Below, one piece after another: positions 30,801 through 33,800 of a stretch of 64,000 bases of DNA. Within the stretch, counting starts at the first letter, position 1. Every line of letters begins with the position of its first letter. A model generated the notes under the pieces. That model was not told the DNA's origin. It made no database searches and saw nothing but the letters and a program-made list of their open reading frames with translations. The position numbers were made by a program, and so were the translations under genes. This stretch comes from Nemertoderma westbladi (taxonomy: Eukaryota > Animalia > Xenacoelomorpha), in NCBI GenBank assembly GCA_032718475.1, contig JAUCBJ010006679.1, positions 1 through 64,000 on the forward strand, in the 5' to 3' direction.

Positions 30801-33800
30801 CATTCAATGGACTGGGGGCGATTTATGGGCGAATATTGGGGCGACTTACGGGGTACGGGACTCATTTCATGTATTTAAGGGCCAGGGGTGGAAGGAAAAG
30901 TTAAGCAGTATTCAGGTTTGCCTGATTACTATTAGGCCTAGCCAACTTCCTGCTGCCTGTAGAGGTGGATTTGGTAACTCGCTAGGTCTAAAGGACAAGG
31001 ACTGCCCTTAGCGGTCCCTGGCCAACAGCAGTTATTACGAGCCTGAATAAGGACTCGGAAAGTCTGCTGCTTGTGTCAGGGATTGGCGACGGGAACCGAC
31101 GACAGACCCCTAGCCAAGCCGTACTGGTTCCTGATGACCGATCCCTTCAGGGTTCGGGAAGGGTGGGATGGACACGCGAACGGGTCGACCGACTAACGGA
31201 AGAAGGGTTCGACGAGGACTGCCTTCCTGGAGTGGGTTCCATGACCGGCGTTAGTACGAGCCTGAATAAGGACTCGGAAAACCACCAACCGTTGAGGCTC
31301 ACGACGGGCTGACAGACCCCTAGCCAAGCGTACTGGTTCCTGATGACCGATCCCTTCGGGGTTCGGGAAGGGTGGGACGGACACGCAACGGGGTCGAAAG
31401 ACAAAGGAATAGACTCTACTGGCCTACCGACTGTTCGGAGCAGCTTCTCGGCCGCCGAAGCGACTACGAGCCTGAATAAGGACTCGGAACTCCTAGGTGG
31501 TTGGGTCCCTGCGATGAACCAACGGACCCCTAGCCAGGCCGTACTGGTTCCTGATGACTGATCCCTTCGGGGTTCGGGAAGGGTGGGACGGACACGCAAA
31601 CGGGTCCACCGACACGACAGACCCCTAGCCAAGCCGTACTGGTTCCTGATGACCGATCCCTTCGGGGTTCGGGAAGGGTGGGACGGACACGCAAAAGGGT
31701 CGACTGACGCCGACACTATGGTACCGAGACTAGGACCGGGGGAAAGTTGGGGAACATTAGTTTGTCTAAAATCTGAGCGAACAGTGGGTAATTAAATAAT
31801 GTACTGTAGGGATTTATATTGTCGTGTTATATTATTGTTAATATTTGGTGTATATTGGTTTGGGGTAGCCCAATTTATTCTCAATCAAGGTTCAACTGTA
31901 GGGAAGTTACATTAAAGACTATATCCAACCAATGAAACTTTTCTCAACTGCAACCTTGCATTTAAGAACGTATTCCTTCTCCACTACCAATATCCGGTGA
32001 CTGGCCGGGATTCCGTGGTCTGAAAAGTTCCACCTCCAGCATCGGCGTTTTTCCCCCATGGTGTCGGGAATAACGGCAACAAAATTGAGAATAAGACGCG
32101 GCCAACTTCAACTGGTGGAAGTTGGGAATCCTACAATACTCTTCAAACTCTCTCCGTGCTTACCCAGCACCCACTACGAGGAAACTCTGGTATTTGATTT
32201 AAGACAAAGCCGTGGTTTAATCAATCGAATTCGAATTTCGAAATCGGACTCAAATTAAAAAACTCGTAGTCGGCAGATCACATAAAGAGAGTCGTTAAAC
32301 AGGGAATGGAAGTATCGATCACACCCATTGATATAATCCAAGTTGAGCCAGGAATCTGGCATGTCGAAGTTGAAGTACAAGGAACAAACGTTGGACGATT
32401 CAGGATTACCGTTTGGGTAGTCCAGGCTGAGTACGAGACATACGAAGAACTATTTTACGATATCGCATATCTAGCTATCAACGAGGTGCTAGAATGATGA
32501 CGAATAACGTCTCCGACACCAATGAGATGGACCCCCACACAGACTCGGAGGCCGACGAGGTACCGAACGTCAAGAATATGACCCGTCGACTAGGCGCTCT
32601 CAAAGGCTGAGTCACTCGAGCATATCAACGTATAGAGAAACAACTAAGGGGAGTCGAAACACCCCTCAATGAGATACAGACTCAGCTACAAAATATCCGA
32701 AGTATCTTACAACGATATGAGAGGATGATACAAGCATATCAAGAGCTCATCCCCGCCACTGATCAGGTAAACTAACCCAGACTGGAAGAACACGCTGTAC
32801 ACCTAGATGAGTTCCGCAAACAACATCGGAGGACCCTCAGCCTCGTGAGAGGCTATGAGGAACAGTACTATAAGAGAATGGAAAGAACAGACGCAGAATC
32901 AGTGCGGACCTCCAGCACCAGGGCAGCAATTCATCGAAAGAGAATGGGGTCCTCGAGGCACCAGCACTCCAGCACTAGGAGCGAGATGCCTGGTTCAGCG
33001 CATAGTTCTCAAGGGGGCCAGCCACTCCGAGATCAGCTTCGAGAACAGAGGGCATTGGCCCTTAAAGCTCGAATGGAAGACGAATATGTTCAACTACAGA
33101 TCAAACAGGATGTATTGGCAGCCGAAATGCAAAAACGAGAGGCCAAACAACAGGCCGAACAACGTAAACGAGAGGCCGAACAACAGGCCGAACAACGTAA
33201 ACGAGAGGCCGAACAAGAGGCCGAACAACGTAAATGAGAGGCCGAACAACAGGCCGAACAACATAAACGAGAGGCCGAACAACAGGCCGAACAACGTAAA
33301 CGAGAGGCCGAACAAGAGGCCGAACAACGTAAACGAGAGGCCGAACAACAGGCCAAACAAGAGGCCGAACAACGTAAACTAGAGGCATAAATGCGTAAAC
33401 AACATGCCGAGGCTCAAGCGATTCTCATCCATAAAAAGAATGCGGATATTGCGAAACTCGCGGAATACGAATATATGAGGACGGGGAAAGGGGTATAGAA
33501 CAGAACTATGAATCAATCCCGGTCCCGGAATTAGAGAAGTCATTTACGCCACCGGCAGCAAAACCTCCGAAACCCGAGTTCCCGCCAACCATACAGTCTA
33601 CGTTATCGGCAAAAGCACCGGTATTCCATCCCCCACCGGTTACGCTTAAGAATGAGGAACCTTATTTCCCATCCAACCCCACGGTACCGAGCGTTCCCAA
33701 GTACGAGCCTGAAAAGGACTCGGAACGGGACGCCACCCCTCGATCCAACAATCCATTTACATCCACACCACAAATCCGTAACCGTGTCATCATTAAACCT

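Follow-up and report, generated by a model that had tools for sequence, protein, structure and literature searches.

The long terminal repeats (LTRs) of a BEL/Pao retrotransposon from Nemertoderma westbladi each contain four copies of an 82-base sequence, module Y, that is predicted to fold as a rod with a standard kink-turn (k-turn) beneath a UUCG cap and that is likely a docking site for 15.5K/Snu13. We put the probability that Y is a protein-bound k-turn with a host partner of the L7Ae family, 15.5K/Snu13 being the likely one, at about 60%. The element lies in the 64,000 nucleotides of contig JAUCBJ010006679.1 (GCA_032718475.1) that were analyzed, referred to here as the window. An initial annotation of this DNA had offered two mutually exclusive folds for Y, a k-turn and a variant type III hammerhead ribozyme; the first is supported, as a predicted fold, by natural variation, the sequence rules of k-turns, and energy. 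The evidence is moderate that Y represents a known RNA motif in a setting that we did not find in print.

The 5′ LTR (30693–32081) and the 3′ LTR (45869–47197) lie on the plus strand and have TG...CA termini; the latter is without some 60 bases that the former has at ∼31840–31900. They are identical at 1270 of 1309 columns, in an alignment that ended ∼20 bases before the LTR ends, and CpG sites account for 18 of the 39 substitutions. A G-rich polypurine tract (45860–45868) directly precedes the 3′ LTR, and a plus-strand target site duplication of five bases with one mismatch (30688–30692 on the left, 47198–47202 on the right) falls within a 23-base satellite. Arrays of this satellite occupy 28997–30692, 47195–51533, and 56401–59807, with the element inserted inside one; other satellites in the window have units of 27, 33, and 21/42/63 bases. 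A domain search placed a gag piece (DUF1759) at 34002–35129. It is followed, also on the plus strand, by pol pieces in an interrupted frame (38913–41845; RT/RNase H with Peptidase_A17, an integrase zinc finger, and DUF5641) and by an extra ORF region with an exonuclease-like domain and CCHC zinc knuckles (43096–45283), which is interrupted in this copy. The element shares with BEL/Pao the ordered series DUF1759, Peptidase_A17, and integrase (H2C2, DUF5641), together with TG...CA LTRs and a short target site duplication, and the named relatives of its RT/RNase H piece are all animal, at no more than about 40% identity. The element thus belongs to the autonomous-type BEL/Pao retrotransposons of animals and is no plant-type retrozyme.

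The exonuclease-like lead for the extra ORF is PF01612, which is found on 42% of the members of one protein cluster. A word-indexed protein search gave no matches to this ORF and a full search gave three. P0069 was dropped as a relative because it is a fibronectin-repeat protein; the relative P0070 has the exonuclease-like part and the CCHC knuckles in a single protein. Bdelloid LTR elements with extra DEDDy exonuclease ORFs offer a parallel to the exonuclease-like ORF before the 3′ LTR, although the examples named in PMC5408684 belong to other LTR lineages (Juno, Vesta) and not to BEL/Pao. Just after the 5′ LTR, at 32082–32100, there is no obvious tRNA primer-binding site (no TGG). A stretch of ∼2.4 kb (∼34530–36990), with tandem repeats of 44, 69, and 100 bases and an AT-rich run, splits gag and is probably a nested insertion. 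Fragments of another retroelement, with a LINE-type RT and DUF6451, are present in opposite orientations at 53737–55074 (minus strand) and 2744–3241 (plus strand).

The expected four copies of Y were found in each LTR, giving eight in the window, all on the sense (plus) strand. Those in the 5′ LTR are at 31105–31186, 31315–31395, 31525–31606, and 31620–31701, and those in the 3′ LTR are at 46281–46362, 46491–46572, 46702–46783, and 46797–46878; each is a predicted k-turn. Start-to-start spacing is 210, then 210 or 211, then 95. In copy 1 the bulge spans 31133–31135, the G.A strands are 31136–31137 and 31158–31159, and the −1b:−1n pair is 31132:31160. Copy 4 served as the reference for the variant table, with −1b at 31647, −1n at 31675, 3b at 31653, and 3n at 31672. 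The letters that define the k-turn (a three-nucleotide GAU bulge, tandem GA/GA, and CCU/AGG) are unchanged in all eight copies, and pairing of the rod is intact in 99% of cells when these copies are compared. The UUCG cap and CCGU/ACGG helix that had been described are present in the other copies; the copy at 31105–31186 departs from both, with a UUCA loop and a G.U pair in the CCGU helix. When both strands of the window were scanned with a strict k-turn pattern, only Y passed, in seven of its eight copies; the eighth is without one pair, which was lost at a CpG. The basal internal loop of Y (31110–31112 with 31177–31181) and the base of the neighboring hairpin X (31036–31037 with 31058–31060) have a UA/GAA-type loop in common, which we take to be loop E-like. 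The first base of the 3′ strand of Y in this basal loop is G in most of the depth of related contigs (A31387G, A31598G).

Natural k-turns strongly prefer C:G at −1b:−1n, and U:A is a weak folder in ions (PMC8191799). The window copies carry U:A, which makes them weak folders in ions and counts against the k-turn reading. The wider family was sampled through Logan contigs of four public DNA runs (X1–X4) that share one organism label; they represent at most three samples (X1 and X2 share a sample), one of which may be the source of the window. No RNA run was listed among those with related sequence. Contigs were placed on 30900–31800 and on Y copy 4 (886, 551, 286, and 34 contigs in X1–X4), and variant shares are summed contig depths, which are neither copy numbers nor phased. 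On copy 4, −1b (T31647) is C in 89, 92, 91, and 82% of the depth in X1–X4, and −1n (A31675) is G in 74, 75, 81, and 89%. Together, these changes turn the U-A pair into C-G; in hammerhead numbering the two positions correspond to U4 and A14. Because both shares are far above half, the C and the G should commonly occur together; in X1–X3 the share of C at −1b (89–92%) exceeds that of G at −1n (74–81%), so a C.A mismatch may be present in some copies.

The variation also touches 3b (C31653), which is T in 32–56% of the depth, and 3n (G31672), which is T in 52–70%; from these unphased shares, U.U at 3b:3n is likely a common state in the family. Further changes on copy 4 are A31656T (13–41%), T31657A (12–22%), G31682A (19–46%), and C31654T (0.3–1.8%), and T31657A would pair a U.U mismatch in the Y rod. 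No change of 1% or more was listed for the bulge, 1b, 2b, 1n, or the UUCG loop in the contigs on copy 4. Conservation of the G.A pairs had been proposed as a check on the k-turn, and it came out in its favor: the G.A letters and the bulge are fixed in the eight window copies, and the only change listed there for the contigs on copy 4 affects 0.07–1.4% of the depth at 2n (G31673A). On copy 1, a C-to-T change at −2b makes up 91–96% of the depth in X1–X3 and leaves a U.G pair. All rows listed for copy 4 fall within 31647–31682, from which we infer that this table omits the ends of the stretch; such an omission would explain why the −2b change is missing from it. Taking 36 positions as testable, the probability that seven variable ones would hit both sides of at least two rod pairs by chance is 0.032, and it is 0.010 when the seven places must also spare the seven core letters.

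The letters of Y also match what is reported for binding by 15.5K/Snu13. U at L3 occupies a protein pocket, purine at L2 raises the affinity for 15.5K/Snu13p, and Snu13p selections almost always return U.U at 3b:3n (PMC1874613); Y has a purine at L2 and U at L3. A Watson-Crick 3b:3n pair, C-G especially, needs protein to fold, and box C/D k-turns are unfolded without L7Ae (PMC4382518). With C-G in the window, or U.U as the likely family state, Y would be unable to kink in ions alone, and a protein would lock the fold. L7Ae-family proteins bind k-turns and initiate RNP assembly (PMC5061560).

Module Y does not stand alone in the LTR. It alternates with a 25-base hairpin, module X, which has a bulged A and a five-base GNRA-like loop in its first copy (31036–31060). 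Three X are found per LTR, the further copies being at 31255–31279, 31465–31489, 46212–46236, 46431–46455, and 46642–46666, and a near-exact seventh lies in the gag coding region (33702–33725), where a GAAA tetraloop replaces the five-base loop; all are on the plus strand. Helix probabilities for X in the 5′ LTR are 0.93–1.00. In the 3′ LTR two of the three helices form, and the middle copy has two substitutions. The X arms have z scores of −3.3, −4.5, and −2.6, with the first arm scoring equally on the minus strand. Related contigs commonly lack one base near the loop of X, which would agree with the GAAA loop seen in gag, and G31052A, which breaks a pair, reaches 17–23% in X1–X3 and 76% in X4. 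Upstream is hairpin H (30932–30991, plus strand), with an outer helix probability of 0.90 in the 5′ LTR; its pair 30940:30983 is A-U in the window and G-C in the single X4 contig that covers it. With H, X, and Y, the center of the LTR reads as a sense-strand array of RNA hairpins. At 30993–31023 the summed contig depth (139k–197k in X1–X3) is far above that of the neighbors, which suggests another motif common to subfamilies.

Packaging signals are often located in gag. The presence of X in both LTR and gag makes the gag copy a candidate packaging or Gag-binding signal, and raises an alternative for Y itself: that it is read in packaging or dimerization by the element's own Gag or by the zinc knuckles of the extra ORF, with the k-turn only shaping the RNA and no host L7Ae protein involved. 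The additional CCHC knuckles encoded beside the 3′ LTR fit such a signal, as does the packaging signal of MoMuLV, which has an “A-minor K-turn” (PMC7599994). We consider this reading unlikely, since the poor folding of a C-G 3b:3n pair in ions and the L7Ae dependence of box C/D k-turns (PMC4382518) argue against a protein-free hinge, and the L2 and L3 letters of Y suit the preferences of 15.5K.

Tandem repeats are frequent in LTRs, and Y and X could instead be DNA-level enhancer repeats or neutral LTR duplications that template switching keeps alike, with the k-turn arising by chance. Among shuffled sequences, 4 of 5000 for Y and 11 of 500 for the LTR passed the strict k-turn pattern, and Y has an unremarkable folding energy (z from −1.14 to +0.19 in four copies). 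In favor of the RNA reading, X is, between units, identical at 22–25 of 25 positions and Y at 76–81 of 82, and the spacers at only 12–19 of 35–44 and 31–32 of 70 columns. High identity alone is no proof of selection: all eight window copies share the minority U-A state, which points to homogenization within the element, and the copies are likely kept alike by exchange during reverse transcription (template switching). Set against these observations are the changes on both sides of two pairs in the family (p about 0.01–0.03), the A-U to G-C change of hairpin H in one contig, and the UUCG cap and GNRA-type loops, which are features of RNA. An origin of the k-turn by chance in DNA-level repeats is accordingly quite improbable in our estimation.

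A third alternative keeps Y as an RNA element and has it work as a slipped hairpin, or as a switch between that hairpin and the k-turn. The slipped form uses the same strands to make seven pairs. It is the computed minimum in six of eight copies, by 0.3–2.5 kcal/mol, has a probability of ∼0.6 where listed, and stays paired through both the −1b and −1n changes. The NC helix beyond the G.A pairs is paired in 98% of cells, yet the model finds the slipped hairpin equally stable. Standard energy models do not reward sheared G.A pairs or bound protein, which weighs against taking this result at face value. The 3n change G31672T, present in the larger part of the family depth, breaks the middle pair of the slipped hairpin, and A31656T breaks its inner stem. 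We find it hard to credit the slipped hairpin as the working form, and under the k-turn reading protein binding would outcompete this fold of similar energy.

The hammerhead had been drawn from CUGAUGA and GAA, which flank the hairpin in all eight window copies, and its stems I and III can be drawn in 99.2% of cells. Compensatory changes among the eight copies number zero for either fold, so the copies are unable to decide between rod and hammerhead. Folding and family variation do separate them. In constrained folding the k-turn rod had an energy 6.1–13.6 kcal/mol lower than the hammerhead in every copy, and to the question of which strand ACCC pairs with, the folding model answered the distal GGGUC (probability 0.96–1.00) over the proximal GGGU of stem III (0.000). 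CUGAnGA is present in the eight copies, whereas U4 is C in 82–92% of the family depth; the GAAA with A15.1-U16.1 fails, with G at 15.1 in every copy and A14 read as G in 74–89% of the depth, so the family majority is without a hammerhead core. Contigs on copy 1 mostly have U at position 3 as well. Besides the G at position 15.1, the drawn core has a mismatch or an insertion next to C3. The A15.1-U16.1 pair is generally regarded as essential, and cleavage suffers from insertions near C3; a U10.1-U11.1 mismatch, in contrast, is tolerated in natural hammerheads (PMC3088659) and does not tell against the drawing. No type I partner strand exists in either LTR, where the CUGAnGA of Y is the only one, and no fitting stems were obtained for type I or permuted hammerheads built with the GAAA of X or with downstream strands (by hand, against the blocks in PMC10085705). 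Rfam returned no hammerhead at E values up to 10. We give next to no credence to the idea that Y cleaves LTR RNA into units of ∼210 bases as a hammerhead, whether of type III (variant or decayed) or permuted.

Two dependent proposals, a switch between the folds and a dead ribozyme reused as a protein site, find no support; the CUGAUGA/GAA appearance is a minority state in the related contigs. The few joints that go back in the DNA contigs fit tandem copies and are uninformative on circles. The suggested comparison with retrozymes does not hold for the element as a whole, which encodes gag and pol between its LTRs. Plant LTR retrozymes resemble it in having an RNA motif inside the LTR and, in the window copies, CUGAUGA; they differ in being non-coding and non-autonomous, with four-base target site duplications and a hammerhead that cleaves, whereas the Y element has gag-pol, a five-base duplication, and a failed core (PMC4918200).

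Other structured RNAs were considered for Y. At the gathering score Rfam gave no match across the window, and at E up to 10 a single weak match to an unrelated lncRNA, outside Y. A box C/D snoRNA motif was rejected since box D CUGA is absent (the strand opposite the bulge is GGGA, and GUGA where 3n is changed) and Rfam gave no snoRNA match. SECIS elements are defined by a long helix II with an apical AAR; Y has a stem of eight positions under UUCG and no such helix. Layouts of the HDV-like, twister, and pistol type were compared by eye at the level of their consensus only, and none held in all copies.

No relatives of Y were found outside this organism among metagenome contigs, viral stretches, and distant BEL/Pao loci. 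A degenerate pattern for the Y hairpin gave 0 matches in metagenome contigs. A scan with a loose pattern returned 62 viral stretches; blastn showed no similarity between these and either Y or the LTR (lowest E 0.71), and they were treated as chance. Of 524 confirmed BEL/Pao loci, 80 distant ones (542,507 bases) were kept, whose LTRs may be absent from their contigs; these contained no Y, X, or k-turn array and no match to the extra ORF, and LTR similarity was never better than E 0.058. Strict k-turn patterns occurred in the same 80 loci eight times in sense and five times on the other strand, never as an array. In the literature searched, from which subscription papers were mostly absent, we found no standard k-turn in an LTR among reports on k-turns or structured RNA in LTR and mobile elements, and no cis-acting RNA signals of BEL/Pao elements turned up.

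The closest known counterparts are the k-turns of U4 snRNA and box C/D RNAs that are bound by 15.5K/Snu13. Like Y, they have a three-nucleotide bulge ending in U, tandem G.A/A.G pairs (PMC4382518, PMC5061560, PMC1874613), a Watson-Crick C helix, and a 3b:3n type that needs protein to fold. Unlike them, Y is present in four copies within a retrotransposon LTR and has a UUCG cap after eight positions; it is without the box D CUGA and terminal C/D layout of box C/D RNAs, and its protein binding is predicted. MoMuLV SL-C, with its “A-minor K-turn”, likewise places a kinked RNA among the cis-acting RNA signals of an LTR-type element; it is described as a new A-minor motif, present in one packaging stem-loop, whereas Y is a standard G.A k-turn repeated in the LTR (PMC7599994). 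In the mammalian intronic ktRNAs and klRNAs, as is proposed for Y, 15.5K binds beyond the classical snoRNAs, at sites that affect the carrier RNA; unlike Y, these RNAs are small, derive from introns, and have C and D boxes at their termini (bioRxiv 10.64898/2026.08.03.742641). The main text of that preprint contains none of the terms LTR, retrotranspos-, and transposable; its supplements might list LTR-derived RNAs.

During copying, all of the LTR sequence is taken through the element RNA. The genomic RNA consequently carries at least four Y sites, and there would be four at each RNA end if the region corresponds to R, a placement that we infer from the positions of a TATA-like box (30872) and an ATTAAA (31791). 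Together, the Y and X hairpins would assemble an RNP that protects or routes the element RNA, serving stability, nuclear routing, or packaging, roles that we do not rank. The most specific form of this proposal, that this BEL/Pao lineage uses four k-turns per LTR to coat its RNA with host 15.5K/Snu13, which is thus dressed as an sn(o)RNP for protection and nuclear routing, is tentative and on balance less probable than not, while deserving more weight than any of the alternatives above.

For scans that look for ribozymes, Y carries a caution: when a k-turn hairpin has a GAU bulge and a closing U-A pair, it spells CUGAUGA...GAA and mimics the core of a hammerhead. For the biology of the element, a standard k-turn repeated in an LTR names 15.5K/Snu13 as a candidate host partner of LTR retrotransposon RNA, and Y would link the handling of transposon RNA to snoRNP assembly. 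If the coating proposal is true, Y would be a signal by which an LTR retrotransposon hijacks a host RNP, akin to the export elements of retroviruses and built from the snoRNP nucleation site.
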